Positions 4,290 through 24,600 of a stretch of 24,600 bases of DNA are shown piece after piece. The notes beneath the pieces were generated by a model. It saw nothing but the letters and a program-made list of their open reading frames with translations. It had not been told where the DNA came from and did no database searches. Location: positions 1 through 24,600 of the forward strand of contig JAPKGD010000001.1 in the NCBI GenBank assembly GCA_026648125.1. The letters run 5' to 3'. Positions within the stretch are counted from its first letter, which is position 1. Every line of letters begins with the position of its first letter. The DNA comes from Bdellovibrionales bacterium (GTDB taxonomy: Bacteria > Bdellovibrionota > Bdellovibrionia > Bdellovibrionales > UBA1609). Made by a program: the position numbers and the translations under genes.

Positions 4290-4421
4290 CTGGCGCACAG
4301 CAAGGTGAGGTAAGAAAAAGTCGCGTGAACTATTGGACGTTTTGAATCGATACGTTGAGTGATCGGAGAAGAGTGAGAACTAAATTGCTTAAAGAAAAAT
4401 TCAGTGTTAGGGATTGAAGGG

Positions 4422-4748: not shown

Positions 4749-4800
4749 GTCTTTTTCTAGACTCAATCTCAATCTTTTTTCACAACCATAAGGAGGTTTT

Positions 4801-4974
4801 GTGTACGCACGCTTATTTTTACTTTTGTTGCCGATTTTCTTTATTGCTTGCTCGTCAATCGAGCGTAAGCCGAATTGTGTTCAGAATCCGAATTCGCAAA
4901 AAGAAGTTAAATGCGAACAGGAGAAAGCTCCCGAATCTCGATCGACCCACGGAGGATATCGTGAAAGGCCATAG
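4801..4974 (+). CDS. Small lipoprotein (57 aa), not in ORF track
   Basis: AAGGAGG at 4790-4796, then GTG 4801: MYARLFLLLLPIFFIA-CSSIERKPNCVQNPNSQKEVKCEQEKAPESRSTHGGYRERP*. It has a hydrophobic core, a lipobox (FIAC) and two more Cys, and overlaps the start of the TolC gene. Confidence 0.75.
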   Translation: MYARLFLLLLPIFFIACSSIERKPNCVQNPNSQKEVKCEQEKAPESRSTHGGYRERP

Positions 4975-6214: not shown

Positions 6215-6816
6215 AATACCTATTTATTCTCATCACGCTCTTTGCCTATGGGGTCACTAATTTTGTGAGTGCCGGGGAAAAAGACCATAAGCATACAGAA
6301 AAAAAAGCCGAAGACGACCACGATGAAAATCATGGCGAACACAACGAACATGAGGGCCATGCTGAAAAGCATGCCCACGGGCATGGCGATAATGAAAGTG
6401 AAGATAAACGCGCGGCTCACGATGAACATGAACACGAAGGTCATGGCGAGCACGAAGAGAATGCCCAGGTTGGACCCAATAAAGGCATTTTAGAAGCAAA
6501 TGAAACTGATGGAATCAAATTGTCACCAGAAGCCGAAAAGAATTTTGAAATTTCTAGGATCAAGGCATCGGGAAACCCAATTGAACTTCCTCAGAAGGCG
6601 ATTGTAAGTGCTGTATCTGAAATCAACGTCTATCGCTATCGGAACGGCTTTTATAAGCGCATCGATTTTGAAGAGGTGGCTCGGAAAAGCGACAAAGTCA
6701 CCATTCGTTCTAAAGATATTAGAGCTGGAGATGAAATTGTCACTCAAGGACTTGGCTTCCTTCGGCTTGCAGAAATTGCGGCTTTCGGTGGCGCTCCCGA
6801 AGGTCACTCACATTAA
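6211..6816 (+). CDS. His-rich, very short CzcB/MFP-related periplasmic protein (membrane-proximal domain only)
   Basis: Signal peptide and about 15 His in about 60 aa. IKLSPEAEKNFEI resembles the CzcB N-terminal strand/helix and is joined directly to ELPQKAIV...IRAGDEIVTQGLGFLRLAE, which resembles the CzcB C-terminus. It occupies the czcB position; 201 aa. Confidence 0.7.
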   Translation: MKYLFILITLFAYGVTNFVSAGEKDHKHTEKKAEDDHDENHGEHNEHEGHAEKHAHGHGDNESEDKRAAHDEHEHEGHGEHEENAQVGPNKGILEANETDGIKLSPEAEKNFEISRIKASGNPIELPQKAIVSAVSEINVYRYRNGFYKRIDFEEVARKSDKVTIRSKDIRAGDEIVTQGLGFLRLAEIAAFGGAPEGHSH

Positions 6817-9800: not shown

Positions 9801-9963
9801 TATTCCGATGATGGTATCGACTGGAGTCGGAGCTGAGGTTCAAAAGCCACTCGCGTCCGTAGTTATCGGCGGAATCATTTCCTCGACACTGCTGACACTC
9901 ATCGTTCTACCAGTCGTATTTTCCGTCTTTGAAATAAAAATGAAAGGGCGCGTGGCCCACTGA
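6829..9963 (+). CDS. czcA: CusA/CzcA-family heavy-metal efflux RND permease
   Basis: 1044 aa. Motifs LPIDAVPDITNNQVQI, TM4 GALDFGIIVDG (divalent-cation HME type) and RLRPVMMTALVA. Confidence 0.95.
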   Translation: MLNQIIRISIYNRGVVLFMTLLMAVAGLYTFQHLPIDAVPDITNNQVQINTVIEGLAPEEIERTITFPVESSMRGIAGVEQVRSITRFGLSQVTVVFKDEVDVYRARQLVTERLQGVSGDLPAQARPELGPISTGLGEIYQYVLDFKERAQGEARIRQLMELKSLQDWFIKPRLLTAEGVAEINTSGGFEKQYHVQPDPKKMAANGIHFDEIKQALEKVNRNVGGGYVEQTAEQFLVQGVGLIKSAKEIERIPVKTLESFKIITIGDIAKVALGKELRTGAATYDGDEAVLGTVMMLLGENSRTVSTRVHDRVEEIRKSLPKDIELTTVYNRSDLVNATLGTVEHNLIMGAILVTVILLILLGNIRAALITALTIPFSLLATFLVMKPLGISGNLMSLGALDFGIIVDGTVIVLDNCVRFIHERTKSLKRGLSADEVKEAVYQATVEIRSAAGFGQFIIVMVFLPVFALTGVEGKMFIPMASTFAIAVLAAFILSFTTAPALASLLLSGNASDKEPRLMVWIRKLYVPAFEWSFKRAKLTMALALASVVLGVGLFMTRGAEFLPQLGEGSFAFHMIRPVNASLSQSVEFQKKADRVVESFPEVDHVFSRIGTSEVATDPMGVNVSDTYIMLKPRSEWPKANGSRRTYQELTESIVEKLNRELPGQTYLASQPIQMRFNELLEGTRADVAVKIFGPDLDKLVEFAKKTQEVISKVKGAGDVEVDLAGTSPVLKIEPNESSLMRYNASISDVLDSISIALGGQEAGFLYEAEKKFPIVVRLDDQARSDLGTIRELPVGIGSNTIVPLKNLASISFKETYGSVNRENSNRRSAVLINLRGRDTESFVKEAQEAVAKEIKLPDGYYFEWGGNFKNLEQARSRLMILAPIALVLVLMMVYAAFGSIGETLLIFGCVPMALVGGVIGLILNGLPFSISAGIGFIALSGIAVLNGVVLVNFFNQLKAEGKTGKDLVLQGTLVRLRPVMMTALVAVFGFIPMMVSTGVGAEVQKPLASVVIGGIISSTLLTLIVLPVVFSVFEIKMKGRVAH

Positions 9964-11497: not shown

Positions 11498-11935
11498 ATG
11501 AACCAAGAACAAAAAGAACAATCATCGCAATTGAAAAAACCGAAACTTTACCGCTTCAAGCTGATGCAAGGAAATGTCACGACTGACGGCACCTTTGAGA
11601 AGACCAAGACCGTCGGGATGGCTTATCTAACTGACGGAACGCGGAGTTACTCGCTGAAACTCTGGATGCTGCTCAAGGACAGATTTTATCTCGTCCCGAG
11701 AAGAAAAGACCAGACTCAGTTTCTCGTGCTTACACGGGAAACGAATCGCAATCCGTCTGCAAAGAATCGTAGCTTCTCCAACATCGTTGGAAACGGTCAG
11801 GCGCTCCCCGCGCTCGGAGTCGTTCGCATCGACTTCGATCTCCTGGATAAACCCATCTACATGAGCATGTTTCCCGAGTCGTTCTCCCATTCTTCTAGGA
11901 TGCAAGAGCCGGAGGTCGTCAATGAAGCGGCCTAA
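11498..11935 (+). CDS. Hypothetical beta-rich protein, possibly DUF736-like ssDNA-binding
   Basis: ATG 11498 after AAGGAG. Two related segments, VGMAYLTDGTRSYSLKLWML and IVGNGQALPALGVVRIDFDLL. Confidence 0.6.
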   Translation: MNQEQKEQSSQLKKPKLYRFKLMQGNVTTDGTFEKTKTVGMAYLTDGTRSYSLKLWMLLKDRFYLVPRRKDQTQFLVLTRETNRNPSAKNRSFSNIVGNGQALPALGVVRIDFDLLDKPIYMSMFPESFSHSSRMQEPEVVNEAA

Positions 11936-11972: not shown

Positions 11973-12260
11973 ATGAAACGCAATCAAGCACTGCTTGTTC
12001 TCGGACTCTTTCTCTTGATCGGGATCTTTATGCCCGATCTCGCTCACGCAAGCCTCGAATCGAGTCTCTTGGGTATTAAAACAAAACTTACGGGAGTGAT
12101 TTTGCCGCTCCTCTCCGTGATCGGGATTGCCTTCGCGGCGATCTCGTTCTTCACCGGCAACCCCAATGCGAAACAACATATCGCTTACGCGATCCTGGGT
12201 TGCATTTTCGGGTTCGGAGCGCAGGCCATCGTCGACTTCATCTCCCAGACGGTTCGCTAG
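11973..12260 (+). CDS. virB2: TrbC/VirB2-family pilin
   Basis: ATG 11973 after AAGGAG. Leader ending in AHA, then two hydrophobic helices separated by GNPNAKQH; 95 aa; first gene of the T4SS block. Confidence 0.85.
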   Translation: MKRNQALLVLGLFLLIGIFMPDLAHASLESSLLGIKTKLTGVILPLLSVIGIAFAAISFFTGNPNAKQHIAYAILGCIFGFGAQAIVDFISQTVR

Positions 12261-12272
12261 AGGAGGCGTGAC

Positions 12273-12605
12273 ATGGATGAACAAGGACTATCGACGACGA
12301 AGGTTCCCCGAGCCCTGGAAATGAAGACGAAGCTGTTTGGCTACGAGCTGCCTGACTTGCTTCTCATCTTCATGAACTTAGCCGTGACGAACCTTGCGTT
12401 TGGCTCCACGTCCTTCCGCTATCCGTTGGTATGGGGAACAACGCTAGGATTGGCGTTGTTCCTCTTTTTTGCGAAGCGCGGACGACCAGACAACTACCTT
12501 CAACACTTGGGCGAATTCATCGCGCAGTCGGCCTACAAAGCCGCAGGCGCGCCGGATCGCCTATACAGAAAATTCAGAAAGGACAACCAAAATGCAGAAA
12601 GCTAA
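12273..12605 (+). CDS. VirB3/PrgI-like small membrane protein
   Basis: 110 aa with two TM segments, lying between the pilin and the VirB4 ATPase and overlapping the virB4 start. Confidence 0.7.
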   Translation: MDEQGLSTTKVPRALEMKTKLFGYELPDLLLIFMNLAVTNLAFGSTSFRYPLVWGTTLGLALFLFFAKRGRPDNYLQHLGEFIAQSAYKAAGAPDRLYRKFRKDNQNAES

Positions 12606-15111
12606 AGACGACGCTCTAGCGCATGAACTCCCGTATTGGGATTTTATGGAAACGCCGGAGCCACACGCCATTCTTTTCGATGGCTCCCTGGTCGGCGGCA
12701 TCAAAGTCTCCCTGAAAGACATCGAGTGCCTATCTGACGACGAGGTAAACGGATTTACCGTGGGCCTACGCACGGCCCTTAACTCCATCAGTGAGGGAAC
12801 AGCACTGCAATTCGTTCTCGGCGTCACTTCCGACTTTTCGGATTTGATTCAACGTCATGTGGACGGATTTTCCTCGACCGCGCATCCACTGGTGAAGACC
12901 ATCGCGGAATACCGAGAGAAGAAGCTCAAGGAAGCCGTCGAAAATCGAGAACTCTACAAACCGGAGCTCTGCGTGTATCTGCGCACAGCTATGGTGGAGC
13001 AAAAGCGGGCCGGATTTTTTAGGAGAAAAGAAATTTTCTCCGCAAACGCGGCGAAGTCCTACCAGGACACGCTCGACGTATTGAGCCAGAATATCGACAC
13101 GCTTGTTTCCTCGTTTCATTCCATCGGGCTTGAATCGCGGAGGCTCACGAAGACTGAAATTCTCTCGAATATCTATGGATTTCTGAATCCCAAACGAGTC
13201 TACGAAGAACCCACTCCCAAAATCATCATGTTCAAGGAGAATGATCTTGAAAAAGAAGTGATTGATGAGGCGGAATGGCTTGCTGCGCAGTCGCCGCGTG
13301 AGCAGCTAGTTTTTGGCGATCTCATCTTGAACTTCGATCAGTTCACGCTTGATTCGCACTACCACAAAGTCGTAACGCTCAAGACTCTGCCGGAAGTGAC
13401 TTATGCAGGACAGCTCGCGCAGTTTTTACGAATGCCGTTCCACTACAATCTCAATCTGTCACTCGAAGTTCCGCCTCAGGCGAACGAGATGGCGAAGCTC
13501 CAGCAAAAGCGCAAGATGGCGCACTCGATGGCCGTTACCAGCGGAGGCAAAGCGAGTGATTTGGAGAGTGAATCGAAGCTCTCCTCAACGGAGGAGCTGA
13601 TTCGAGAGCTGCTGAACACGGGACAGCGTATCTATGCCGCGCAAATGAGTGTCATCCTCCGAGCGCCGGCCACACCGGAGGGAGCCAAGAGGCTAAACCG
13701 TGAGGTGCGCGAAGTGCTGGCGCGGTTTCGCGCGCTACAGGGAGCCGAAGGTTTGGAAGAAAGCGTCGGTAGTTGGAAGATCGTCAAAGGAAGTCTCCCG
13801 GCAGCGCCTATCAATCTTGAACGGGCACGAAAGATGAAAACAAATAATCTCGCCGATTTTCTGCCAGTCTATGGCCCGAGAGAAGGCGATCGCGATCCCG
13901 CAGTGATTTTCCGAAATCGCTTGGGCGGACTCGTGGGCTACAACGCTTTCGATCCGGGCCTTGGCAACTATTCGTCCCTGGTCACGGGGTCGTCCGGGTC
14001 CGGCAAGAGTTTTCTGAACAACGCCATTCTCTTGCAGGAATTTGCCCGCAAGATGCGCGTTTATATCATCGACATCGGCGGCTCCTATAAGAAGCTCACC
14101 GAGGCACTGGGCGGCCAGTATCTGGAAGTCAATCTCTCCGATCAATATCGGCTAAACCCTTTCGCACTTCCCGACCCGAGAGAAGAACCGAGCAACCAGA
14201 AAATCAAGTCTTTACTTTCCATTGTTGAAAGTATGGTGAGCGAGGATGAGAAGGCGAAGCTCCCGAAGCTCGACCGTGCGCTTTTGGAGCGGGCCTTGAT
14301 CGAGCTTTATAAATCGCGCCGAGCCAAGGGAGAGGTGCCGACACTTTCGGACCTTGCCCGTTATCTATCGGCTTTTGAGGAAGACTCGATGCGGGCCATC
14401 TCGAAGATGCTTTATCTCTGGACTGGCGAACGCCCCTACGGGCGGTTGCTCGATAGTCACGGAAGCCTTCGCGCTGATGCCGATATTTGCACGTTCGACT
14501 TGAAGGGACTTTCAAGCTACCCCGACCTACAAAGCGTGATGATCCTGATTCTGACTGACTTCATTCTTTCGCAAATTGCGAGCGAAAAAGAAAAGAAGTC
14601 TCGGATCATTATCGACGAGGCGTGGGAGTTGCTGAAGTCGAACGCGGCGGCTTCGTTCATGGAGCTTTCCGTGCGAACGCTGCGAAAAATGGGCATGGGT
14701 TCGGGAATTACCTTCATTACTCAGGGTGTAGAGGAAATCGTCGCAAGCCCCATCGGCTCCGCGATCCTCAATAACACGGCTACGAAATTCATCATGCTCC
14801 AGCGAGGTGATTCAGAGGTTCTAGCAAATGTTCTAAAACTCAACGATCAGGAGCTCTCTCTAATTCACTCTCTACAGCAGAAGAAAGGCGAATATTCAGA
14901 CGGGTTCATGATCGAAGGAGATCACCGTCAGGTTGTCAGAATTTTTCCAAGCCCATTTGAATATTGGCTTTCCACTTCGGACGCTCAGGACAACCGCTAC
15001 CTCGAAGAACTGAAAGAGCAAGGGCTTGATCTTGTGGCCGCAATCACCAAAGCGGCGGCAGTCTACCCGAACGGAGTGGCATCTGGCCCCGCCGCGAAGG
15101 AGTCTGCATGA
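12592..15111 (+). CDS. virB4: VirB4/TraC-family T4SS ATPase
   Basis: Walker A GSSGSGKS, IIDIGGSY, Walker B IIIDEAW and a C-terminal RIFPSPFEYWLSTS motif. ATG 12592 (MQKAKDD) is preferred to 12469. Confidence 0.93.
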   Translation: MQKAKDDALAHELPYWDFMETPEPHAILFDGSLVGGIKVSLKDIECLSDDEVNGFTVGLRTALNSISEGTALQFVLGVTSDFSDLIQRHVDGFSSTAHPLVKTIAEYREKKLKEAVENRELYKPELCVYLRTAMVEQKRAGFFRRKEIFSANAAKSYQDTLDVLSQNIDTLVSSFHSIGLESRRLTKTEILSNIYGFLNPKRVYEEPTPKIIMFKENDLEKEVIDEAEWLAAQSPREQLVFGDLILNFDQFTLDSHYHKVVTLKTLPEVTYAGQLAQFLRMPFHYNLNLSLEVPPQANEMAKLQQKRKMAHSMAVTSGGKASDLESESKLSSTEELIRELLNTGQRIYAAQMSVILRAPATPEGAKRLNREVREVLARFRALQGAEGLEESVGSWKIVKGSLPAAPINLERARKMKTNNLADFLPVYGPREGDRDPAVIFRNRLGGLVGYNAFDPGLGNYSSLVTGSSGSGKSFLNNAILLQEFARKMRVYIIDIGGSYKKLTEALGGQYLEVNLSDQYRLNPFALPDPREEPSNQKIKSLLSIVESMVSEDEKAKLPKLDRALLERALIELYKSRRAKGEVPTLSDLARYLSAFEEDSMRAISKMLYLWTGERPYGRLLDSHGSLRADADICTFDLKGLSSYPDLQSVMILILTDFILSQIASEKEKKSRIIIDEAWELLKSNAAASFMELSVRTLRKMGMGSGITFITQGVEEIVASPIGSAILNNTATKFIMLQRGDSEVLANVLKLNDQELSLIHSLQQKKGEYSDGFMIEGDHRQVVRIFPSPFEYWLSTSDAQDNRYLEELKEQGLDLVAAITKAAAVYPNGVASGPAAKESA

Positions 15112-15815
15112 GGAAGCTAAGGAAATTGCTTCTAGTTGGAGTGATGAGCCTATGTCTTGTAGTGCCTAAGCCCGCAAAGGCTGATCTCTTCGGCGGTGAT
15201 GTGGCTGTGTTGGTGCAGATTTTAGCGAATGCCATTCAGCAACTCGCGCAACTTCGTCAGATACTTGGAACTGGAGCGGATACACTCGACCTCTTGCGAG
15301 ACATCAACCGAGGGATAAGAGACGGGCTCGCCATTATCCAAGTCATCAATCCCAGATTCAATCCCGGACTTTATGGGGATCTGGATACTGCGGATCGCGT
15401 ATTGTCGGTCATCCAAGACCTTTACGGACGAATTCCACAAACAGGAGAAGCACGGCTCCAAGAGGCGCAAGACAGATCGGTGGCGGAAAGCATTGCCATG
15501 AACGGCACTCTTTTCCGTTTCGCTGATCAAGCGGATGAGGAAAGCAAACGGATTATCGCTCATGCGCGAGACGTAAGCCCTCAAGGAGCCGCCAAGCTCC
15601 ACGCGCAATCGCTTGCCGTTCTAATTGGCGTTACGACTCAGGTGCTTCGTACAAACTCGATGATGCTCAAGATGATGGCTGAAAACATGGCGCTGCAAAA
15701 CCGCAAAGACAAGGTACAGGCAGCGCAGTTTCGGAATCAATACGACGGCCTGAGTGACGCTTTCCGAGGACTCCCCACAACCACGAGTCTTCAGCCGTTG
15801 AAGGGAGAAAACTGA
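15108..15815 (+). CDS. VirB5/TrbJ-like exported helical protein
   Basis: Signal peptide (AKA-D), amphipathic Q/L-rich helices, ATGA overlap with virB4, and position. Confidence 0.65.
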   Translation: MRKLRKLLLVGVMSLCLVVPKPAKADLFGGDVAVLVQILANAIQQLAQLRQILGTGADTLDLLRDINRGIRDGLAIIQVINPRFNPGLYGDLDTADRVLSVIQDLYGRIPQTGEARLQEAQDRSVAESIAMNGTLFRFADQADEESKRIIAHARDVSPQGAAKLHAQSLAVLIGVTTQVLRTNSMMLKMMAENMALQNRKDKVQAAQFRNQYDGLSDAFRGLPTTTSLQPLKGEN

Positions 15816-15816
15816 T

Positions 15817-16707
15817 ATGCCGCATTTTGATCTATTGGGGTCACTCATGCGTGACCTTCACCAGGAATTCGTGAGGATTTACTACCTCATGCTTCCGGTC
15901 TTTTTCGCTCTTGCCGTGGCGGTGGCTTGGTTTCGCTCTCCGCAGGGAGGACTTGATTTCCTCGATACGTTCAAGCGGGCCGTGGTCGCCACGATCTTAC
16001 TTTCCGCGTTCCCCGAGATCAGCTCCGCCATTGTTTTCGTCGCGGACGGAATCGCGGAGCGAATCGACAATCTCAACCGCATCGACACAGTTATCCGAAT
16101 GGCGCAGGAAAAGTCGCAGGGCTATTCGCTTTCGGCGACGAGTATTCTGCTGCAATTCGATGATCTAATAGTCGCTGTTCTTTCGTTCGCGAGCTACTTG
16201 GTTCTCTATATAGCACGATACCTCACCATAGCCATGTATCACTTTTTTTGGTTGTTCTACATGGTTTCGGCTCCGATTCTCCTTCTCTTCAATCTCTTCC
16301 CTGGAACAAGCCAGATCACGTCCAATTTGTTCCGTGGAATGGCTGAAGTCGCCTGTTGGAAAATTGTGTGGGCGATTCTCGGCGCAATGCTCGCATCCCT
16401 TAGCTTTGGCGAAATGTATCGCTCTGAAGGGAGTTACGTCGAAATGATCGTGATGAACTTCGTCATTGCGGTTTCGATGCTCGCAACACCGATGGTGGTG
16501 CGCTCCCTCGTTGGTTCCGGCCTTCAGTCGATGTCATCCATGCTCGGAGCCGCGACAGTCGGAGCGATGGTCGCCGCTCCTGCTAGGGCCGCAACCGTAT
16601 TCACCACGGCTAGATCAGGAGTATCCCAAGGTATGAATTTCGTTAGCTCACAATTGGAGAAACGTAGAAATGAAAAGGAAAAACGACGTGCAATGTATCA
16701 CTACTAG
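15817..16707 (+). CDS. VirB6/TrbL-like polytopic membrane protein
   Basis: Several TM helices, the motif SAPILLLFNLFPGTSQ...FRG...CWKIVWAIL, and position. Confidence 0.7.
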   Translation: MPHFDLLGSLMRDLHQEFVRIYYLMLPVFFALAVAVAWFRSPQGGLDFLDTFKRAVVATILLSAFPEISSAIVFVADGIAERIDNLNRIDTVIRMAQEKSQGYSLSATSILLQFDDLIVAVLSFASYLVLYIARYLTIAMYHFFWLFYMVSAPILLLFNLFPGTSQITSNLFRGMAEVACWKIVWAILGAMLASLSFGEMYRSEGSYVEMIVMNFVIAVSMLATPMVVRSLVGSGLQSMSSMLGAATVGAMVAAPARAATVFTTARSGVSQGMNFVSSQLEKRRNEKEKRRAMYHY

Positions 16708-16722
16708 AAAGGAAGTATAGAT

Positions 16723-17310
16723 ATGAATACACCTGTAAAATTAACCGCATCAAAGTTGCCGAAAATATTGAGTGATTTGTCTCACTCGAACCAATTTCTA
16801 AAAGTGTTTTCGCTTTCGTGTCTCTGCGTCTTGTTGCTGACCATAGTGGCTGTGCTGGTTCTTTCCAGCAAAGCTCCGGTTGTTCTAACGCTGACGCCTG
16901 AGGGAAACCGGCTTGAAGCGGCGACACCGCCGAAAGCTGAAGATGAAATTAAAGCCGCTATCGAGCGGTATCTTGATCGTCGCTATAAGTGGGAACCGGA
17001 AAATGTGAAACAACGCCTTTTTGAATCGGAAGCATTTGTTTTGCCTGGCAGTAGACGCGCCTTTCAGGGGGCCATCGCCAACGTCATTCGGTTTTCCACG
17101 GAAAAAAGCGTCTCGCAACGAGTTTACCCGGACAAGATCATAGTGAGCCTTGAGAAGAAAGCCGCGCTCATCTCCGGGGATCGCGTGACCGTGATCCAAG
17201 GGCTTAAAGCAGCGGGAAATCTGCGGCTTGAACTGAGCTTCGAGAGTGGTCCGCGCACGAGAGAAAATCCGTGGGGAATCTATATCACCAAAGAAAGAGA
17301 GGAAATGTGA
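16723..17310 (+). CDS. VirB8/TrbF-like protein
   Basis: One N-terminal TM followed by PVVLTL, an NTF2-like helical/beta pattern, and a C-terminal RTRENPWGIYI typical of VirB8. Confidence 0.8.
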   Translation: MNTPVKLTASKLPKILSDLSHSNQFLKVFSLSCLCVLLLTIVAVLVLSSKAPVVLTLTPEGNRLEAATPPKAEDEIKAAIERYLDRRYKWEPENVKQRLFESEAFVLPGSRRAFQGAIANVIRFSTEKSVSQRVYPDKIIVSLEKKAALISGDRVTVIQGLKAAGNLRLELSFESGPRTRENPWGIYITKEREEM

Positions 17311-18020
17311 TGAATTTCATCATCGCAGCGATCCTGGTGCTCTCTTCGGCGAGCGCGAGTGCGGACACCCGCGTGAGGAAAATCGCGGTGCAAAATGACC
17401 AAATTGTAACGGTCAAAACGGCGCTTGGAATTGCCACGATGATCCAGGTGCCCGATCGACCCAATAGCGTCGTGGTTGGCGACCAAGAATCCTTTAAAGT
17501 GGAGTATCTCGACCAAGCCATCACGATCAAGCCCCTACACTCAGGAGCAAGAAGCAATCTCTACGTCTATACGGACTACCAACGCTACAACGTGCAGATT
17601 GTAACCGGAAGCGAGAGCACCGCGGATTATGTGGTGTATCTGGAACATCCAAAACCAAGGGAACAAAAATCTTCCCTAGTGTGGATGACATTTCGTAATC
17701 ACCTGAAAAATGAAGACCTGATGCTGGAAGTGAAACGCCTTGGACGGGCGAAAGATGGCGTCTTGATCGTGGAGTTTCGCGTTTCCGGCGTGAAGCGAGA
17801 ACCACTGAAGCCCGAATGGATTTGGCTCACGCAAAACGGCACGAGTAGGCCCATCCACAATCTGTTTCTCTCAAACCTCGAAGTTCGGCCTAGAAACGAT
17901 GCAGAGGGTTTTATGCAAATCATGCGGAAAGACGTTGATCCGAATGAACCGCTACGAATCGAACTGCGAAGAAAGAAGGATTCCTATCTCACAATACCCA
18001 AGGTGAACGCATGGAAGTGA
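17310..18020 (+). CDS. virB9: VirB9/TrbG-family outer-membrane core protein
   Basis: TGATG coupling at 17308-17312, signal peptide, and VKTALGIATMIQV...VVGD...ITIKP...SNLYVYTD..RY. Confidence 0.8.
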   Translation: MNFIIAAILVLSSASASADTRVRKIAVQNDQIVTVKTALGIATMIQVPDRPNSVVVGDQESFKVEYLDQAITIKPLHSGARSNLYVYTDYQRYNVQIVTGSESTADYVVYLEHPKPREQKSSLVWMTFRNHLKNEDLMLEVKRLGRAKDGVLIVEFRVSGVKREPLKPEWIWLTQNGTSRPIHNLFLSNLEVRPRNDAEGFMQIMRKDVDPNEPLRIELRRKKDSYLTIPKVNAWK

Positions 18021-18961
18021 TAAAAAGCCAGCTTTCAAAGTTGCTCTTGAAAGACGCGCTTCCTCTCACGAAGAAGCGCGATGTGAATTGGTCGGTGCTG
18101 AAAAAATTCGCGGGAATCGGAATCGGTATTGCGATTCTAACCGTCCTTCTTTTACCAGCTCCAAAGGAAGAACAGACGGTTTTTCATGAGACAAACCAAG
18201 GCGGAGGTTCCCGTGCCTCGGTAGAGAACAATCCCACGCAAGACACTTTGGCGCAGCTCCAATCGGCGCGAATGAATACCGCAGCGGTTCCGAATTCGCT
18301 GGACCCACTCTATATGGGTGGCGGTGCGAGTGGGTCTATGCGCGATCGAAATAGCAGTATGATCCTGACCCGCGGCGGAGTTGACTCCAGAACACAGCTC
18401 CCACCAGGCAGCCGCATTCTTGTGCGACTTGTACAAGGAGCAACCGTGGCAAATCAGGCTATGCCTGTTATTGCCGTGGTCGCAAAGGATGTCGTGCAGG
18501 AGGACAACCTAGTTATTCCCAAGGATTCAAAACTCTTTGGTGATGTTTCCTTCGACGATGGCTCGGAGCGAGCGCAAGTGAGCTGGAAGTCGCTCCAGTT
18601 TCCCGATGGACGCGAGCGCCAGTTCTCCGCCATCGGCGTCGCTTCCGACGGACAAGTCGGAGTGAACGGGAAAATCCACTCCGATGCGCTAAAAAATACG
18701 GTTGGACAAACCCTTACGCGATTCATCGGCGCCTATGCCGAAGGCTCCATGCAACGGGGTTCTTTTGGAGCGAACGAAGGAGGCCGCGACAACGGATTTA
18801 AGAACGCCATCGCGGAAACCGCGAAAGATCGCGCTGAAGCATGGGCTGAGGATATGAAGAAGGAGAGAAAATGGATCGAACTTCGAGCTGGCGACGAGTT
18901 CTTCGCGGTCGTGACCCAGCCCTTCACCTTCCGCGATCCAGGGGCGACCTATGGCCGATAA
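18011..18961 (+). CDS. virB10: VirB10/TrbI-family core protein
   Basis: N-terminal TM, a low-complexity linker, then LPPGSRILVRL...VIPKDSKLFG...RAQVSWKSLQFPDG and the C-terminal LRAGDEFFAVV beta-barrel pattern. Confidence 0.85.
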   Translation: MEVIKSQLSKLLLKDALPLTKKRDVNWSVLKKFAGIGIGIAILTVLLLPAPKEEQTVFHETNQGGGSRASVENNPTQDTLAQLQSARMNTAAVPNSLDPLYMGGGASGSMRDRNSSMILTRGGVDSRTQLPPGSRILVRLVQGATVANQAMPVIAVVAKDVVQEDNLVIPKDSKLFGDVSFDDGSERAQVSWKSLQFPDGRERQFSAIGVASDGQVGVNGKIHSDALKNTVGQTLTRFIGAYAEGSMQRGSFGANEGGRDNGFKNAIAETAKDRAEAWAEDMKKERKWIELRAGDEFFAVVTQPFTFRDPGATYGR

Positions 18962-20546
18962 AAATCCTGGCGGCGACAACCACCAATTCGTGTATCTCGC
19001 GGGCCTCCTCTTCACGCTTCTGCTTCTAAACCGCTTTGAGGCGTGGTTTTCAGTTTGGATTTCGCGAGGTGAAAATCAAATGCTCCTTACGGGTTCAATT
19101 GGCGTACTCTCGGCGGCCTTTTGTTATTGGGCGGCGCAAAAGCGAAAGACCATGATGAAGAAAAAAGAGCGCGAGGCCGCGGTGATCGGGAACGCCGATC
19201 ATGCAGTCTATTGCGGAAATACGAAAGAAGGAGACCCGGTACACATTAAGCCGCGCCAACGGGCGATGCACACACAAGTCATTGGGACGACGAACGCTGG
19301 AAAAACGGAGTCGGTCATTCTGCCTTGGGCGATCCAAGACATCGAACAAGGCAGAGGGTTGATCCTGATTGACGGAAAATCAGACAGGAGCCTCCTCGAC
19401 AAGCTGTGGGCTTATACGGTGAAAGCCGGAAGGGAAAAGGATTTTCGTCTCTTCTCTTTGAGTAATATCAGCGAATCGCACCAGTTCAACCCATTGATCG
19501 GCGGAACGCCGGAGGAAATTTCAGAACGGGTCTTCAATGCCTTCGACTTTGAGAATCCTTACTACCGAAGTCTGCAATACGAGGTCTTTTCGCAAGTCAT
19601 GCGGATTTTCGACGGGGCCGGCAGGGTTCCAACCTTTCTTCGCATCCATCAAGCGATCACGACGCCGGAACTCCTGGTGTCGATGACCGCGAGCTGCGAA
19701 GAGATGGGACTCAGAGAATGGGCCGAGTATTTCCGCGACCTACCGGAGAAAGATCGGATTCAGAGGACAAGCGGCCTCACAGCCGCCATCAGTCATTTTG
19801 CGTTCGGCAAAACGGCGCTGTTATTCAACACGGAAAGTCCGGCCATCACAATTGAAAATGCCTTGCTGGAAAATAGGATCATTTACTTTCAGTTGCCCGT
19901 GCTGCTATCGCCGTTCCTCGGGAAAGCCGCTGGAAAGATGATTCTCCAGTGTTTGCAAAGCACCGTTGCCAATCGTCACAGAGGAAAGAATAGAACGCCG
20001 GATTTCTATTCCGTCTTTCTGGATGACTTTTCCGAGTATCTGTATCCCGGATTCGTTTCGATCCTGAATAAGTCGCGAAGCGCCAACGTGGGGGTCGTAT
20101 TCGCCCATCAGGCGCTCGGAGACATCAAAACACTTGGCGATGCTATCGCCAATTCCATTCTGACCAACGCGAATATCAAGGTCTTCATGCGTGGGAACGA
20201 TCCCGAGTCCGCCGAATACTTTTCCAAAGTAATCGGCACTGTGAAAGCCATGAAGTACACCGAGCGCACGAAGAAAGGGCTTTGGAAGAAGGAGCAGACT
20301 GGTGAGGCATCAGCCCGTGAAGTGGATGAATTCATTGTTCACCCCAACCGATTCAAGCGCGAGCTTGGCGTGGGCGAGGCTGTGATGATCGTTCCTCACG
20401 AATCTGGAAGCCGAGCTCTCAATATCAAATTTTATAAATACGACGACCTAGCCCCTGTGACGATCCCCGCCGTTGAGAAGTACGCAGCGGGCAAGCTCAC
20501 GGCGGAAAACTCTCAAAACCAAACTACCTCAAAGGAGGCCGCATGA
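18951..20546 (+). CDS. virD4: VirD4/TraD-type coupling protein (T4CP)
   Basis: Two N-terminal TMs, Walker A GTTNAGKT, LILIDGKSD, Walker B-like VFLDDF and KSRSANVGVVFAHQALGD. Confidence 0.92.
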   Translation: MADKNPGGDNHQFVYLAGLLFTLLLLNRFEAWFSVWISRGENQMLLTGSIGVLSAAFCYWAAQKRKTMMKKKEREAAVIGNADHAVYCGNTKEGDPVHIKPRQRAMHTQVIGTTNAGKTESVILPWAIQDIEQGRGLILIDGKSDRSLLDKLWAYTVKAGREKDFRLFSLSNISESHQFNPLIGGTPEEISERVFNAFDFENPYYRSLQYEVFSQVMRIFDGAGRVPTFLRIHQAITTPELLVSMTASCEEMGLREWAEYFRDLPEKDRIQRTSGLTAAISHFAFGKTALLFNTESPAITIENALLENRIIYFQLPVLLSPFLGKAAGKMILQCLQSTVANRHRGKNRTPDFYSVFLDDFSEYLYPGFVSILNKSRSANVGVVFAHQALGDIKTLGDAIANSILTNANIKVFMRGNDPESAEYFSKVIGTVKAMKYTERTKKGLWKKEQTGEASAREVDEFIVHPNRFKRELGVGEAVMIVPHESGSRALNIKFYKYDDLAPVTIPAVEKYAAGKLTAENSQNQTTSKEAA

Positions 20547-20977
20547 ATAAAGCGACCTTTTGTTATTTTGTTCCACTTGTCGCGCTTACCCTGGCTGCCG
20601 CCGGATGCGCGACGCAATCGAAGAGCATTGGTCTGGGCGGAGCCATTGGTGCCGGAGGCGGCGCTGTCCTTGGTGGCATCGCCGATCCTGGAAAAAACGG
20701 AGAATACCGGACAAGAAACGTGATCGTGGGAAGCGCCCTTGGCGGCATGGCTGGAATGATTGCTGGTTCCGTGATTCACGAGAATACGGAAAAGCAAAAG
20801 CAGGAAGCCTTTAAGCGTGGGCAATCTTCTCCTGCCAAACAACCCGGCTCGATGCCTAATCTCAAAGATCCCAAAGTAGATGCCCGATGGGTTGATGGGC
20901 GCATTGTCGGAAATCGCTATGTCGAAGGCCATTGGGAGTACGTGATCGTGGAGCCCGCGCGCTGGGAGGAAAACTGA
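20543..20977 (+). CDS. Glycine-zipper lipoprotein
   Basis: Lipobox AAG-C and GxxxG repeats (GLGGAIGAGGGAVLGG; GSALGGMAGMIAG). Coupled to virD4 by ATGA and to the relaxase by TGATG. Confidence 0.8.
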   Translation: MNKATFCYFVPLVALTLAAAGCATQSKSIGLGGAIGAGGGAVLGGIADPGKNGEYRTRNVIVGSALGGMAGMIAGSVIHENTEKQKQEAFKRGQSSPAKQPGSMPNLKDPKVDARWVDGRIVGNRYVEGHWEYVIVEPARWEEN

Positions 20978-21711
20978 TGGCAAGGCATGAGTTTCCCGCT
21001 CGCGCACTACAGATCGCAGCGAAAGCCGGTTTCATCACGAAAGAATTATGGCGAGATCATGTATTTGGCGAAGTGCCGAAATCAGAGAGCGGTAAGCGAC
21101 GATACCACTGGGCCTGGAAAAGTCTTATGCAAAGGGGCTATCTCCGGCCACACCCGAACCGCCATCTCTCGAACGTTTTGATCCTGGGGCACAAAAAACT
21201 CGGGATCATTCGCGAGCAATTCGGCGCGGCCTCGCGCAGTCCCTATGAAAGCCAGTTCCACCACGACGAGCTGCTTTTGCATGGTGTGTTGCAAGCCGAG
21301 CAAGCTGGACTTCTTCGCCACTGGACTCTCGAATCGGAGCTGAAATCGAACGAGCGGGACGAATTTAAGCTCACGAGCCAGGGTAAGGGACTTAAATACC
21401 CCGACGCGATTCTCTATCTTCTGAGCCGCAAGATGGCGGTGGAAATGGAACTGACGCTCAAAAACCGAAAGCGCTACAAGCAGATCATCGGAGCCTATGA
21501 ATTTTTGAAAGACCTGCCAGTGATCCTGTTCGTGACGGCGACGCCGGCCATCGAGAGAGCCATCCGAGAGACGATCAAAGACAACCCTGCGGCGTTTGCG
21601 AGTGCACGCTTTGGATTCATGTCGCTCGATGAATGGCGAAAGAGTCCCGTAGATGGGGAAATCATCTGGAATAACGAACGTACCACGCTCAGAAAAATCG
21701 CTGCGAATTGA
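20977..21711 (+). CDS. MOBC-type (Replic_Relax / PD-(D/E)xK-like) relaxase
   Basis: Winged-helix-like N-terminus, FHHDELL, and the motif D-x12-E-x-E-L-x2-K-x3-R-Y (21403-21477), which fits the MOBC consensus. It lies just after the T4CP; ATG 20977. Confidence 0.8.
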   Translation: MARHEFPARALQIAAKAGFITKELWRDHVFGEVPKSESGKRRYHWAWKSLMQRGYLRPHPNRHLSNVLILGHKKLGIIREQFGAASRSPYESQFHHDELLLHGVLQAEQAGLLRHWTLESELKSNERDEFKLTSQGKGLKYPDAILYLLSRKMAVEMELTLKNRKRYKQIIGAYEFLKDLPVILFVTATPAIERAIRETIKDNPAAFASARFGFMSLDEWRKSPVDGEIIWNNERTTLRKIAAN

Positions 21712-21724
21712 AAGCGAAAAACCA

Positions 21725-21921
21725 TATCTCACTCGTATCTCGCTAGTGAGATACACGGCGAATGCTGATAGGAGCTAGAGAACCAGCAAATAGCTGAATT
21801 TAATACAAACACCGCTGCCGCCGCCCCTTGCCACTCCCCCGAGTCGCTGCTGACCCCTCCCTCTCCACGATGTTTCGATGTAGGGGTCAGCAGCTGGTGA
21901 CTGGACAAGGGGCGACGGCGG
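21725..21921. promoter_or_regulatory. Candidate oriT / structured intergenic region
   Basis: A 9-bp IR (21725-21733/21745-21753), a 20-bp near-palindrome (21735-21754), a perfect 13-bp IR (21846-21858/21882-21894) and an outer 16-bp IR (21815-21830/21906-21921), next to the relaxase. Confidence 0.55.
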
Positions 21922-21937
21922 AATACCAAGGAGAAAT

Positions 21938-22339
21938 ATGGAAGAACAAAATCTAGATACCAAAGAATTAAAGACAGAAGAAATACACAGGATCACTGTC
22001 TCAAAGGCAGCAGAGGAAGCATTGTCGGCGATTATGGAACGAGTGAATGACGGGTTCGACGGCGGCAAAATCAATCGTATGCAAGTAGCCAACTGGATCA
22101 TACTGCGATTTAGCGACAGTTACGGTGATTCAGAGATCAAAGATATTCGGGCCGAGAACTTTGACGAAGTCGCCGTTCTCGAAGCGATTTTGCGCAGAGC
22201 AAAGAAGAACGGAAAAGTTCCCTTGGAAATTAAGGCCCTACTGCAAAAGCAGCTTGGCTTTGAGGAACCGCCAAAAAAGCGTAAAAAGTCCTTGCCAGAC
22301 AATATCATCAATGATGATATGGAGAGCAACGGAGTATAA
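21938..22339 (+). CDS. Hypothetical protein, possible ribbon-helix-helix relaxosome accessory factor
   Basis: RBS AAGGAG. HRITVSKAAEEALSAIMERV...KINRMQVANWIILRF has the strand-helix-helix pattern of RHH proteins; basic C-terminal tail. Confidence 0.65.
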   Translation: MEEQNLDTKELKTEEIHRITVSKAAEEALSAIMERVNDGFDGGKINRMQVANWIILRFSDSYGDSEIKDIRAENFDEVAVLEAILRRAKKNGKVPLEIKALLQKQLGFEEPPKKRKKSLPDNIINDDMESNGV

Positions 22340-22342
22340 GGA

Positions 22343-22687
22343 ATGGCTTTGCCTCAGCTTACGAAGAAGCAGATTGAAAAGACGCTGGCGGAGTATTGCG
22401 ACAGCCGCGTACCGAAGCATATTCGTCACCAGCTGCGGCTCGAATTTGCTTTCCGTGGGAATACTGTTTCCATCTATGAGGTGCGCCCGGTGTGGGACGA
22501 CCCAACTCGATTTACCGAAGGTCCCGTCGCACAGTTCCGCTTCGACCCGAAGGCCAAGACATGGACACTCTACTGGCGCGACCGTAATTTGAAGTGGCAT
22601 GTGTACGACAGGAAGAAGCCGTCGCGCACATTTGATTCGCTTTTAAAGGAAGTAGATGCAGACCCAACTGGAATTTTTTGGGGCTGA
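22343..22687 (+). CDS. DUF3024-family protein
   Basis: RVPKHIRHQLRLEF..RGNTVSIYEVRP.W...PVAQFR......WTLYWRDRNLKWH.Y...LLKEVDADPTGIFWG is the characteristic family pattern. Confidence 0.85.
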   Translation: MALPQLTKKQIEKTLAEYCDSRVPKHIRHQLRLEFAFRGNTVSIYEVRPVWDDPTRFTEGPVAQFRFDPKAKTWTLYWRDRNLKWHVYDRKKPSRTFDSLLKEVDADPTGIFWG

Positions 22688-22701
22688 GGCTGGCAGCAAT
22701 T

Positions 22702-22926
22702 ATGAAAGGCGAAGAAGTTAAACGCATTCGAGAGAAACTAGAAATGAACCGCAACGACCTTGCGGAGCTTCTTTGCTTGGCTGGCTATCAGAGTATGATG
22801 AACATTGAAACAGATTTTAGGAGGCCAGCAAAGCTGGCCGTCCGACTGCTTCGTTATTTGGACTCGCTTCCAAAATCGAAGGCTATGGTTTTGATCGAGG
22901 AGCTTAAACGCCATGACTCTCGTTAG
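22702..22926 (+). CDS. Xre/Cro-type helix-turn-helix protein
   Basis: EVKRIREKLEMNRNDLAELL...SMMNIET..RRP; ATG 22702. Confidence 0.8.
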   Translation: MKGEEVKRIREKLEMNRNDLAELLCLAGYQSMMNIETDFRRPAKLAVRLLRYLDSLPKSKAMVLIEELKRHDSR

Positions 22927-22951
22927 AGTTTTACAAATTTGGAGTTTGTCT

Positions 22952-23152
22952 ATGGCAAAGCGGCTCTCTTCTCGTGCCATAAAATGCATGGATCAACTTC
23001 CGCCGATACAACTTATTCCGATTTCTTCGGTTGAAGGTACTGACATTCTGAGAGTGAAAGAAATTGAAAATCTCGTCGCCCAAATTGTCCTCATTGGGCA
23101 AAAACGCGGGCGACCTTCTCGCAAAGAGGAGGAAACAAAAGATGCCGCATAA
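22952..23152 (+). CDS. Small basic protein overlapping the recombinase start
   Basis: ATG 22952 after GGAG (alternative start 22913). Contains KRGRPSRK, and its stop overlaps the recombinase 5' end by 11 bp. Confidence 0.6.
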   Translation: MAKRLSSRAIKCMDQLPPIQLIPISSVEGTDILRVKEIENLVAQIVLIGQKRGRPSRKEEETKDAA

Positions 23153-24600
23153 AATCGGAGCCTATGTTCGTGTGTCCACCGAAGAGCAGGCCCAAGTCCT
23201 CGAAGGCTCGCTAGAAAGCCAGCAACATCGTTTGAAGGGATTTATCGCCCTAAAGAGCGCGCATGAATCAGGCTGGGGAAAGATCGTAGAAACTTATATT
23301 GATGACGGATATTCAGCGAAAGATACCAATCGCCCGGCCTATCAACGGATGATGAGAGACATCCGCGCTGGCAAAATTAATTTGATTCTTGTCACCGATA
23401 TCTCCCGCCTTTCAAGAAGTATTCATGATTTTTGTGTCCTCTTAAAAGAGCTCGACGAACACAAAGCGAAGTTCCTCTCAGTCAAGGAACAGTTCGATAC
23501 AAGCACCCCGGCTGGGGAAATGATGATCTATAATATGGTGAATCTCGCTCAGTTCGAGCGGAAGCAAACCTCCGAACGCGTATCGATGAATTTCCATTCA
23601 CGCGCTCTTCGCGGGCTACTCAATGGTGGCAGCCCTATCCTTGGGTACGACAAAGATCCTTCCAATCCGGGAAAGCTGGTTGTCAATAATGATGAAGTGC
23701 CGATGGTTAGGAAGGTATTTGAAATTTACCTCGAAACAGGCAGCTTGCAGGAAACGGCGATTCGCCTCAATGGAACCGGAATTCTTCCGAAAATCGGCAA
23801 GGGTCGCAAGTATAGGCACATCGCGAGCGGCAGATGGACCGTGAGTACCGTTAGAAGTCACTTAACGAACCTCGCTTACGCTGGTAAACGCGAGGTAAAT
23901 CGAAGGTACAAATGCGAGGATCAAGATTACTTGAAGCCTTGGCAAAGATACCAGATCGTAAGCGCCTCCTGGCCAGCAATCATCAATGAAGAGTCCTTCA
24001 ACATTGTCCAAAAGATGATCGAGGACAATCGGCTCAAGGAACGAGATCGTTTCAAAAAGGGTGAGCGACGATTTTTTCTTTTGTCGGGTATCATTCGTTG
24101 CGGTGATTGTGGCCGGGCCTTGATAGGTCAAGCGGCGACAGGCCGTAACCAAACCCACCGCTATTACGGGCATCGGCAAGTGGTCGGGGAAGCAATCACT
24201 TGCAAGCATAAACGCTTTCGTTCCGAAGAAATCGAAACCGCTGTAGTTGACCACCTGGACGACATTCTTTTGCGTGCTGGTCACTTGGACTCGATCGAAA
24301 TGAATATCAAGAAGATTTACGGCGCTCATGGATCAGACCTGACTTCGGAAAGAGATCGCGTCGCCAAGGAATTAGTGAAGCTGGATAAAGACATCGAATC
24401 CGCGTTTCGACTCCACGCCGAGATGAATGGATCGCCTGAAGTTCTGAACGTGGTTCAGGAGAAGTTACAGAATTTGGCGGAGAAGAAACGAAAGCTGGTT
24501 TCTTACAAAGAGTCTTTGCTGGCTCAGATCGATACACACAAGGACGCCAGAGAAGCGAGATCTGTTATTGAAGATCGCGCCCTGGCATTTAAGAAGGGCT
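23142..24600 (+). CDS. Large serine recombinase (integrase), partial at window end
   Basis: The frame is open from ATG 23142 to the window edge. It reads MPHKIGAYVRVSTEEQ (catalytic Ser), DDGYSAKDTNRPAYQRM, DISRLSRS and AQFERKQTSER, then a recombinase domain, the zinc ribbon LSGIIRCGDCG and a coiled coil. Not in the ORF track because there is no stop. Confidence 0.95.
   Translation, partial: MPHKIGAYVRVSTEEQAQVLEGSLESQQHRLKGFIALKSAHESGWGKIVETYIDDGYSAKDTNRPAYQRMMRDIRAGKINLILVTDISRLSRSIHDFCVLLKELDEHKAKFLSVKEQFDTSTPAGEMMIYNMVNLAQFERKQTSERVSMNFHSRALRGLLNGGSPILGYDKDPSNPGKLVVNNDEVPMVRKVFEIYLETGSLQETAIRLNGTGILPKIGKGRKYRHIASGRWTVSTVRSHLTNLAYAGKREVNRRYKCEDQDYLKPWQRYQIVSASWPAIINEESFNIVQKMIEDNRLKERDRFKKGERRFFLLSGIIRCGDCGRALIGQAATGRNQTHRYYGHRQVVGEAITCKHKRFRSEEIETAVVDHLDDILLRAGHLDSIEMNIKKIYGAHGSDLTSERDRVAKELVKLDKDIESAFRLHAEMNGSPEVLNVVQEKLQNLAEKKRKLVSYKESLLAQIDTHKDAREARSVIEDRALAFKKG

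Follow-up and report, generated by a model that had tools for sequence, protein, structure and literature searches.

The 24,600-nucleotide stretch of DNA analysed here (the window) is one entire contig (24.6 kb; JAPKGD010000001.1) of a fragmented metagenome-assembled genome (MAG; GCA_026648125.1) of a Bdellovibrionales bacterium, and it very probably represents the greater part of an integrative and conjugative element (ICE) from a large family that is conserved in the phylum Bdellovibrionota; this family would be characterized by a 13-gene module, by a native lack of the ATPase VirB11 and of lytic transglycosylase (SLT) genes, and by a distinct lineage of the VirB4 ATPase. The family is apparently undescribed and assembled from known parts, and a literature search found no paper on these conjugative elements of Bdellovibrionota. 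Integrase, relaxase, type IV coupling protein (T4CP) and a VirB4-based mating-pair-formation (MPF) system were found together in one chromosomal locus, the gene content by which an ICE is recognized. An original prediction, made from the letters of the window alone, had proposed a compact type IV secretion system (T4SS) of the diderm kind with two ATPases, VirB4 and the coupling protein, and the analysis supports this proposal.

Hundreds of sequences are homologous to the window's VirB4 at 70-98% identity, and those that are named all come from Bdellovibrionota; a VirB4 of the family is present in 142 of 401 sampled genomes of the phylum (104 of 203 genera; 31-77% identity). Seventeen loci, with VirB4 identities as low as 31%, have one and the same gene order, and a synteny survey returned the same 13-gene order, followed by the integrase, in 80 of 80 further loci, bar truncations at contig ends (unknown145-B2-B3-B4-235-296-B8-B9-B10-T4CP-(lipoprotein)-MobC-133-integrase). 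Sixty of these 80 loci are complete through the relaxase, with a serine integrase in 24 and a tyrosine integrase in 18. The titles of the 80 loci are those of Bdellovibrionaceae, Pseudobdellovibrionaceae, Bacteriovoracaceae, Halobacteriovoraceae and Oligoflexia MAGs, the remainder being one Fimbriimonadaceae-labelled MAG and a few MAGs labelled Pseudomonadota or Proteobacteria. Carriers of the family include MAGs with the labels Bdellovibrio, Pseudobdellovibrio, Bacteriovorax and Halobacteriovorax. The copy in the Fimbriimonadaceae-labelled MAG (Armatimonadota; L058, JAHBTE010000002.1) is a 77%-identical whole module, and it reflects either a cross-phylum transfer or a binning error. Relatives sit inside contigs of 0.2-3.3 Mb, and on two long metagenomic contigs (225 and 232 kb) the operon is found between variable cargo and an integrase. 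A second copy of the module, 65% identical and extending from the pilin gene to the 235-amino-acid (aa) gene, lies on a 4.3-kb contig of the window's own MAG (C158:82-3881). In genome G385, the operon is interrupted between its VirB8-like and VirB9 genes by an insertion of 2.4 kb (L037:8709-11119).

No open reading frame (ORF) of the window matches the T2SSE/VirB11 or SLT families of Pfam and NCBIfam. The window is a contig of a 74%-complete MAG (2.72 Mb, 629 contigs, 48.8% G+C) and both of its ends are assembly breaks; because an absence from such a contig proves little by itself, the absence was tested in relatives. The 80 loci with their 10-kb flanks (1.47 Mb) contain zero VirB11-family ORFs, as searched with a hidden Markov model (HMM) that recovers the T2SSE paralogues of the window's own genome. 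Five contiguous genomes of the phylum were searched for PF00437 genes: four have none closer to the module than 100 kb, and the closest one in the fifth is a PilB/GspE-type gene of 588 aa at a distance of 17 kb. No SLT gene was found near the module in five genomes (Pfam), a negative that covers the window and these five genomes only, not the 80 loci, and SLT families only, since non-SLT peptidoglycan hydrolases were not searched. The absence of VirB11 and SLT, as it had been predicted for the window, hence holds in and near the module in the window and in relatives; since the surveyed loci and four of the five contiguous genomes likewise have no VirB11 near the module, its absence is the normal state of the family, and the lack of both VirB11 and SLT is, as judged from these relatives, a conserved native state and not decay. 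The original prediction had also built on the lack of VirB11, and this part proved overstated, since such a lack is nothing unusual outside MPF_T: VirB11 is 'rarely found outside MPF_T (19%)' (PMC4027160).

A VirB11-like ATPase might be supplied in trans by the chromosome, which we consider improbable. The window's own genome has eight T2SSE matches (GspE, PilB, three PilT, a CpaE-TadA fusion, a 348-aa TadA/VirB11-like protein and one fragment below cut-off), and a chromosomal TadA/VirB11-like gene was present in every genome examined, so that in principle its product could act in trans. The 348-aa protein (on contig C241) has the TadA/CpaF family as its best match and reaches the cut-off of neither the TrbB nor the VirB11 model (TIGR02782 TrbB_P, 165 bits; VirB11, 145 bits). 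In each of the five relatives, the weakest PF00437 match (about 330-380 aa) is far from the ICE, 1.29 Mb away in G385; the related plasmid pYRE of Myxococcus carries no such gene, and most MPF classes function without VirB11 (PMC4027160).

Alternatively, the module could be a decaying, non-functional remnant after the loss of VirB11, VirB1 and other genes. Some relatives indeed have stops in VirB4 or insertions in the operon, such as the 2.4-kb insertion at L037, and an ISNCY-family element lies at the left end of the window; however, all 13 module genes of the window are intact and translationally coupled, and the gene content is kept across 31-98% identity and in all 80 loci, which makes decay the most improbable of the explanations considered here.

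For the position of the VirB4 ATPase, a maximum-likelihood tree (LG+C20; 34 rows, 818 columns) was computed with 17 references taken from annotated records, in which all eight MPF classes are represented (F, Legionella, pRA1 and pHCM1; R388, Ti and R751; R64; ICEHin1056; the Bacteroides plasmid p5482; the Nostoc plasmid pCC7120alpha; pCW3; and two Firmicutes plasmids). The family forms a clade of its own (support 96/96) and is excluded from MPF_F (99/99) and from MPF_T (100/98); it is sister to Myxococcus pYRE plus Thermus pTTJL1802 (80/83), and the deeper nodes are unresolved. VirB4 nests inside none of the sampled classes, and on this tree it represents a lineage distinct from the sampled representatives of the eight MPF classes. 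The NCBIfam scores of VirB4 are all below cut-off: TIGR02746 (TraC-F-type) scores highest with 317 bits (cut-off 567), followed by VirB4_CagE (195), CD1110 (168), MPF_G (88), TrbE (70) and Bacteroidetes TraG (62). In PLSDB, the best matches are Myxococcus pYRE (27% identity) and Thermus plasmids (25%), then IncA/C TraC (24%).

The same data allow the family to be read as a reduced, divergent branch of an existing class, either F-like without TraF/H/N/U/W/TrbC or P-like without VirB11/VirB1, that merits no separate rank; we regard this as quite possible, if somewhat short of an even chance. The best NCBIfam match of VirB4 is TraC-F-type and the next is the general VirB4_CagE model, and the top PLSDB matches (tblastn) after Myxococcus and Thermus are all F-type TraC over 92-95% of the length. 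The VirB3-like protein matches TraL, the VirB8-like protein matches TraE about as well as VirB8, and the gene order is the same as that of R388 and Ti virB. Moreover, the approximately unbiased (AU) test rejected sisterhood neither with MPF_T (11.3 log-likelihood units worse when constrained, p 0.051) nor with MPF_F (p 0.066). Against such a branch, the class-specific NCBIfam models for VirB4 all score far under their cut-offs, the F crown (F, Legionella, pRA1, pHCM1) and the T crown (R388, Ti, R751) exclude the family with 99-100% support, and identity to any plasmid VirB4 is 27% at most. No match to the F-specific TraF, TraH, TraN, TraU, TraW or TrbC was found (Pfam, NCBIfam) among the window ORFs, to which the search was confined, the whole elements not being searched. 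The conserved module itself contains no genes beyond the 13 of its fixed order. Finally, the related pYRE is listed in PLSDB (MOB-suite) as non-mobilizable, with neither an MPF nor a MOB type. Neither of the two outcomes that would have spoken against the original prediction was obtained: VirB4 nests in no sampled class, and VirB11 and SLT genes are not close by in relatives. The undescribed MPF class suggested there is a possibility, weakened by AU tests that do not reject sisterhood with two of the classes.

Gene calls within the module were based on an ORF listing plus the Pfam and NCBIfam scans, and family alignments built from syntenic relatives were compared with reference proteins of F, R388, R751 and Ti (hhalign, HMM). 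Eight virB-like genes, the coupling protein, a lipoprotein and the relaxase were located at 11973-21711, where the original prediction had placed them (ORFs and family scans; VirB5 by position), with 9.74 kb from the pilin start to the relaxase stop, all on the + strand; the predicted ATGA overlaps (15108 and 20543) and TGATG overlaps (17308 and 20975) are all present in the letters when read directly. The first module gene encodes a conserved 145-aa protein (11498..11935, + strand) without signal peptide or transmembrane (TM) segment and lies directly before the pilin gene in nearly all 80 loci; the protein has no Pfam or NCBIfam match, and its ESM Atlas neighbours are solely unnamed Bdellovibrionota clusters.

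The pilin gene (11973..12260; VirB2/TrbC-type, 95 aa; PF04956, E 2e-8) encodes a signal peptide and two hydrophobic helices, and its product aligns with the VirB2 profile (hhalign, probability 89%), the family HMM matching R751 TrbC. It is followed by a gene for a small VirB3/TraL-like membrane protein (12273..12605; 110 aa), assigned by its position between pilin and VirB4 and by matches to F TraL (hhalign, 78%; HMM) and to ICEHin1056 TIGR03750 (HMM). The VirB4/TraC-like ATPase (12592..15111; 839 aa; P-loop_TraG, E 3e-37; Walker A motif GSSGSGKS) most likely starts at ATG 12592, behind AGGA, with an overlap of 14 nt with the preceding gene. In the VirB5 position there is a gene for a secreted 235-aa protein with a signal peptide, predicted to be all-helical (15108..15815), and thereafter one for a polytopic inner-membrane protein of 296 aa with five to six hydrophobic segments (15817..16707). 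The ten best named ESM Atlas neighbours of the latter all belong to TrbL-clan families (score 0.93), and these language-model neighbours hint at a VirB6/TrbL-like protein. The remaining channel genes encode a bitopic VirB8/TraE-like protein (16723..17310; 195 aa; weak PF05309 TraE; one N-terminal TM segment), a VirB9-like outer-membrane core protein with a signal peptide (17310..18020; 236 aa; PF03524 (CagX), E 7e-12; TIGR02781, E 1e-14; hhalign, 84%), and a VirB10/TrbI-like core protein (18011..18961; 316 aa; PF03743, E 9e-17; hhalign, 97%; one N-terminal TM segment). The coupling protein (18951..20546; 531 aa; PF12696 TraG-D_C, E 6e-14; PF02534 T4SS-DNA_transf; TIGR03743 SXT_TraD, 119 bits; Walker A motif GTTNAGKT), a Gly-zipper lipoprotein (20543..20977; 144 aa; lipobox LAAAGC) and the relaxase (20977..21711; 244 aa) follow, the lipoprotein being a candidate VirB7 analogue or exclusion factor. 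Across the module, the topology of the proteins (signal peptides, TM segments, lipobox, Walker A motifs) fits the assigned roles.

The P-type pilin and VirB9/VirB10 core proposed in the original prediction were borne out; the profile scores of VirB4, VirB3 and VirB8 lean to the F type (TraC, TraL, TraE) and not to the P type, and on account of these scores, the system is better described as a mosaic than as a stripped MPF_T. The MPF_T markers are the VirB3, VirB6, VirB8 and VirB9 profiles (PMC3158045); VirB9 is matched, VirB3 fits F TraL better and VirB8 is weak, as scored with Pfam, NCBIfam and hhalign and not with the profiles of CONJScan, while for VirB6 the support comes from the language-model neighbours.

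The family was also compared with known systems. With MPF_T (R388, Ti virB), the family shares the gene order B2-B3-B4-B5-B6-B8-B9-B10, a similarly small gene count, and a pilin, VirB9 and VirB10 that fit P-type Pfam/TIGR families; it differs in that VirB11, VirB1 and a short VirB7 are missing, VirB4 is outside the MPF_T clade, the coupling protein and relaxase lie inside the operon after VirB10, and the relaxase is MOBC and not MOBF/P/Q. The likeness to MPF_F (F, SXT/IncA/C, IncHI) lies in the TraC-type VirB4, the TraL-like VirB3, the TraE-like VirB8, the two ATPases and the lack of VirB11, whereas the window module has no TraF/H/N/U/W/TrbC/TraG_N matches, the pilin is of the TrbC/VirB2 type, the order is VirB-like, and VirB4 falls outside the F crown clade (24% identity). 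Myxococcus pYRE (NZ_CP102771.1) and the Thermus plasmids carry the nearest VirB4 relatives found. Plasmid pYRE has homologues of three of the module's proteins (the 235-aa, the 296-aa and the VirB8-like one), a MobC-like gene next to the coupling protein gene, and no T2SSE gene anywhere; the Thermus cluster differs from the family by large extra proteins, an SLT gene and a T2SS/T4P/T4SS-family ATPase. Both systems are plasmid-borne, whereas the family is integrated, and in pYRE the T4CP-relaxase pair lies upstream of the channel genes. A precedent for lean diderm systems is the MPF_C system of Nostoc pCC7120alpha, where some ten genes, including those for VirB4, VirB10 and a coupling protein, form a compact cluster with no VirB11 annotated in the stretch that was read; its VirB4 is, however, very distant and groups with R64 TraU, its relaxase is MOBV, and the host belongs to another phylum.

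For the 244-aa relaxase, an alignment was assembled from synteny (a word-indexed homologue search gave nine close relatives). Residues H96, D97, P142, D143, E156, E158 and K162 are invariant and R166 and Y167 nearly so among 15 homologues, down to 16% identity; in the alignment, these constitute the PD..ExE..K nuclease signature, as in MOBC, a family of restriction-endonuclease-like relaxases on plasmids and ICEs (PMC12857230). An N-terminal winged helix and a C-terminal nuclease domain are predicted (AlphaFold model, pLDDT 91), and in Foldseek searches the C-terminal domain matched restriction endonucleases and other PD-(D/E)xK nucleases in the PDB, while the full-length model matched 'replication-relaxation' clusters in AFDB (E 1e-12 to 1e-7, TM up to 0.72). 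At the level of sequence profiles, the NF041423 MobC_subf match is below threshold (E 4e-7, 30 bits, cut-off 200), and PF13814 (Replic_Relax) was matched in 3 of 15 family members (best E 7e-4). A family profile run against 1,726 ORFs of twelve reference plasmids found its best match in the CloDF13 mobC region (an unannotated ORF), and its second in the gene beside the coupling protein gene of Myxococcus pYRE. The assignment as a MOBC-type PD-(D/E)xK relaxase, with nicking as its predicted activity, is hence well supported by conserved residues and modelled fold, in agreement with the nuclease-fold MOBC relaxase originally predicted.

The HMM of the coupling protein has its best match in ICEHin1056 TraD and also matches CloDF13 MobB, and the plasmid relatives of the coupling protein are mostly small mobilizable plasmids; the pairing of coupling protein and MOBC relaxase fits with both. 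CloDF13 MobC/MobB and pAD1 TraX share with the family the PD..ExE..K..RY signature, the winged helix with PD-(D/E)xK fold, and a neighbouring coupling protein that falls into the same broad clade; sequence similarity to these MOBC systems is marginal, and in the family the pair is, by difference, built into a complete diderm T4SS on an ICE. Two plasmids of Bdellovibrio sp. HAGR004 in PLSDB (AP029180.1 and AP029181.1; 11-12 kb) encode a coupling protein 26% identical to that of the window, and these plasmids may be mobilizable by riding this family of T4SS.

The 226-nt gap 3' of the relaxase gene is occupied by a nested two-tier hairpin (outer arms 21817-21830/21906-21919; inner arms 21846-21863/21877-21894). 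Two-tier hairpins of about 100 nt and of different sequence lie between the relaxase and the next gene in four relatives (L009:19234-19335, L011:19280-19424, L038:6740-6833, L039:6993-7087), and because the architecture recurs despite differing sequence, it is regarded as a conserved structure and as a candidate origin of transfer (oriT) for the MOBC relaxase. Directly 3' of the hairpin there is a gene for a conserved 133-aa protein (21938..22339, + strand), which follows the relaxase gene in most loci; the protein has no Pfam or NCBIfam family match and is a candidate relaxosome accessory factor.

The large serine integrase predicted to follow the module was confirmed. It is encoded, for about 486 codons, up to the contig end (23143..24599, + strand) and has Resolvase (PF00239), Recombinase (PF07508) and Zn_ribbon_recom (PF13408) domains and the catalytic motif YVRVSTEEQ; it is 37-47% identical to the module-ending integrases of six relatives. 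The relatives are 570-630 aa in length and the window copy is without its C-terminus, which was not found on any other contig. Between the 133-aa gene and the integrase, genes for a DUF3024 protein (22343-22687; PF11225, E 8e-39), an MqsA/Xre-like helix-turn-helix (HTH) protein (22678-22926; weak MqsA_antitoxin) and a small basic protein (22952-23152) are predicted, all on the + strand; of the 80 loci, 29 also have the HTH gene and 7 the small basic protein, in both cases together with serine-integrase copies.

In all of the six serine-integrase relatives examined first (L037, L038, L039, L045, L046 and L048), the integrase ORF runs at its 3' end into a convergently oriented tRNA or transfer-messenger RNA (tmRNA) gene, for which reason the integrase is regarded as the last gene of the element; about 0.3-0.45 kb of the element would then lie beyond the right end of the window, with no room there for virB11 or virB1. 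In the window's own genome, a full serine integrase with the same small upstream genes lies beside a convergent tRNA-Ala gene (C219:732-2540), and an integrase fragment on contig C212 has a convergent tRNA-Leu gene about 300 nt further on; the C219 integrase and the second module copy on C158 together indicate at least two family elements in this genome. In the independent set of 80 loci, the overlap with tRNA or tmRNA genes was found in 20 of 24 serine-integrase loci, often exactly 21 nt long; among the four exceptions, three ORFs look truncated and one is full-length without a nearby tRNA or tmRNA gene. The genes met by the integrase ends (loci L060-L130) comprise those for tRNA Ala, Arg, Gln, His, Met, Pro and Val and for tmRNA. 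Tyrosine-integrase copies have no tRNA/tmRNA neighbour, with one exception, 115 nt away. These overlaps suggest tRNA and tmRNA genes as the target sites of the serine integrases, and an attP that lies within the integrase gene, at its 3' end. Targeting of tRNA/tmRNA genes with the att site in the 3' end of the integrase gene is a habit typical of tyrosine integrases. Direct repeats of the tRNA or tmRNA gene that would mark the left ICE end were not found within 20-40 kb in relatives.

In the proposed mode of transfer, the relaxase and the 133-aa protein as its accessory would bind and nick the hairpin 3' of the relaxase gene, the coupling protein would pass the DNA on to an envelope channel that consists of the VirB6/8/9/10 homologues, is powered by VirB4 and bears a VirB2 pilus, and the serine integrase would integrate the element into a tRNA or tmRNA gene at the 3' end of that gene. 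Alternatively, the T4SS could serve these bacteria as an effector or DNA-release system and not, or not only, in conjugation, the integrase being incidental: the hosts are predatory, T4SSs are often exapted, and no transfer has been observed. We hold this to be very unlikely, since a relaxase, a coupling protein and a structured hairpin between genes belong to the fixed content of the operon, the module is always followed by an integrase, the flanking cargo is variable and several diverged copies per genome are possible, all of which are hallmarks of self-transmissible elements.

Besides the chromosomal ATPase and the confined peptidoglycan-hydrolase search described above, several observations weigh against the interpretation as an ICE family with a distinct and complete minimal T4SS. 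The left ICE end and the att sites are not defined in the window, both contig ends being open. The tree has one to four VirB4 references per class and long branches, and the AU tests do not reject sisterhood with MPF_T or MPF_F. Among the channel proteins, the VirB8-like protein aligns weakly with both TraE (hhalign, 26%) and VirB8 (24%), and the 296-aa protein gave no PDB, HMM or hhalign match to VirB6 references. A VirB5 identity of the 235-aa protein failed the profile, hhalign and fold tests: the hhalign match to VirB5 is weak (19%) and extends over the mature N-terminus, the family profile had no match among PDB sequences, and the AlphaFold model (pLDDT 57) returned just generic helical bundles in a fold search; ESM Atlas gave faint leads to PF07996/TrbJ clusters (0.89-0.91). 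The lipoprotein is found in most loci, and none was detected in a large subclade with about 50% VirB4 identity. Furthermore, every close relative is a MAG and the analysis was computational throughout; we infer actual transfer, the oriT, the chemistry of nicking and the role of the lipoprotein.

With these points considered, an ICE of a conserved, natively VirB11-less family is still favored for the window. A more far-reaching reading can be offered tentatively, as a possibility that we would not yet call probable: the family and the Myxococcus pYRE-type plasmids may constitute a ninth MPF lineage and the most compact conjugation apparatus known from diderms (about ten genes for envelope and energy functions, two ATPases), with a MOBC relaxase, a hairpin oriT and tRNA/tmRNA-targeting serine integrases that have the att site in the 3' end of the integrase gene, a lineage missed by typing tools.

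The left part of the window holds cargo genes. An outer-membrane factor (4799-6214; Pfam OEP), a short adaptor-like protein (6211-6816) and a CusA/CzcA-family heavy-metal RND pump (6829-9963; Pfam ACR_tran; NCBIfam TIGR00914, 1231 bits, cut-off 701) are encoded on the + strand. Upstream thereof, a 632-aa fusion of a c-type cytochrome domain and an EfeU/FTR1 iron permease is encoded as cargo (2342-4240), adjoining a CopL-like gene (4404-4748). A comparable pump set lies immediately 5' of the module in loci L011 and L059; in all, 6 of the 80 loci have RND pumps near the module, and none has the other cargo genes of the window. Metal-resistance cargo, as originally predicted, is thus present here (TIGR00914 pump), and is not a trait of the family; it is specific to the window copy.

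The G+C content of the window is 45-55% and genome-like from about 2 kb onward, and 63-66% in the first 2 kb. At the left end, a complete insertion sequence of the ISNCY family was found (about 349-2030; transposase 417-1823), which is single-copy in the assembly and is bounded by the terminal inverted repeats CTAGTTCCCATCCC / GGGATGGGAACTAG. Its G+C content is 65%, compared to 49% for the genome; the element either arrived recently from a foreign source or marks a chimeric end of the contig.

So far, there are hardly any descriptions of conjugation in Bdellovibrionota. Roughly one in three of the phylum's sampled genomes carries the module, often in several copies, and it is probably the main route of gene exchange in these bacteria, including the exchange of metal-efflux cargo. 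Typing tools appear to overlook this type, in which case mobility is under-called in these genomes. A diderm T4SS with a fixed set of ten genes and two ATPases would be a useful minimal model for the roles of VirB11, VirB1 and VirB7. Among relaxase families, MOBC is the one least understood, and with a conserved partner hairpin the chemistry of these enzymes becomes testable. Serine integrases that target tRNA and tmRNA genes are, in addition, a possible source of new site-specific tools.

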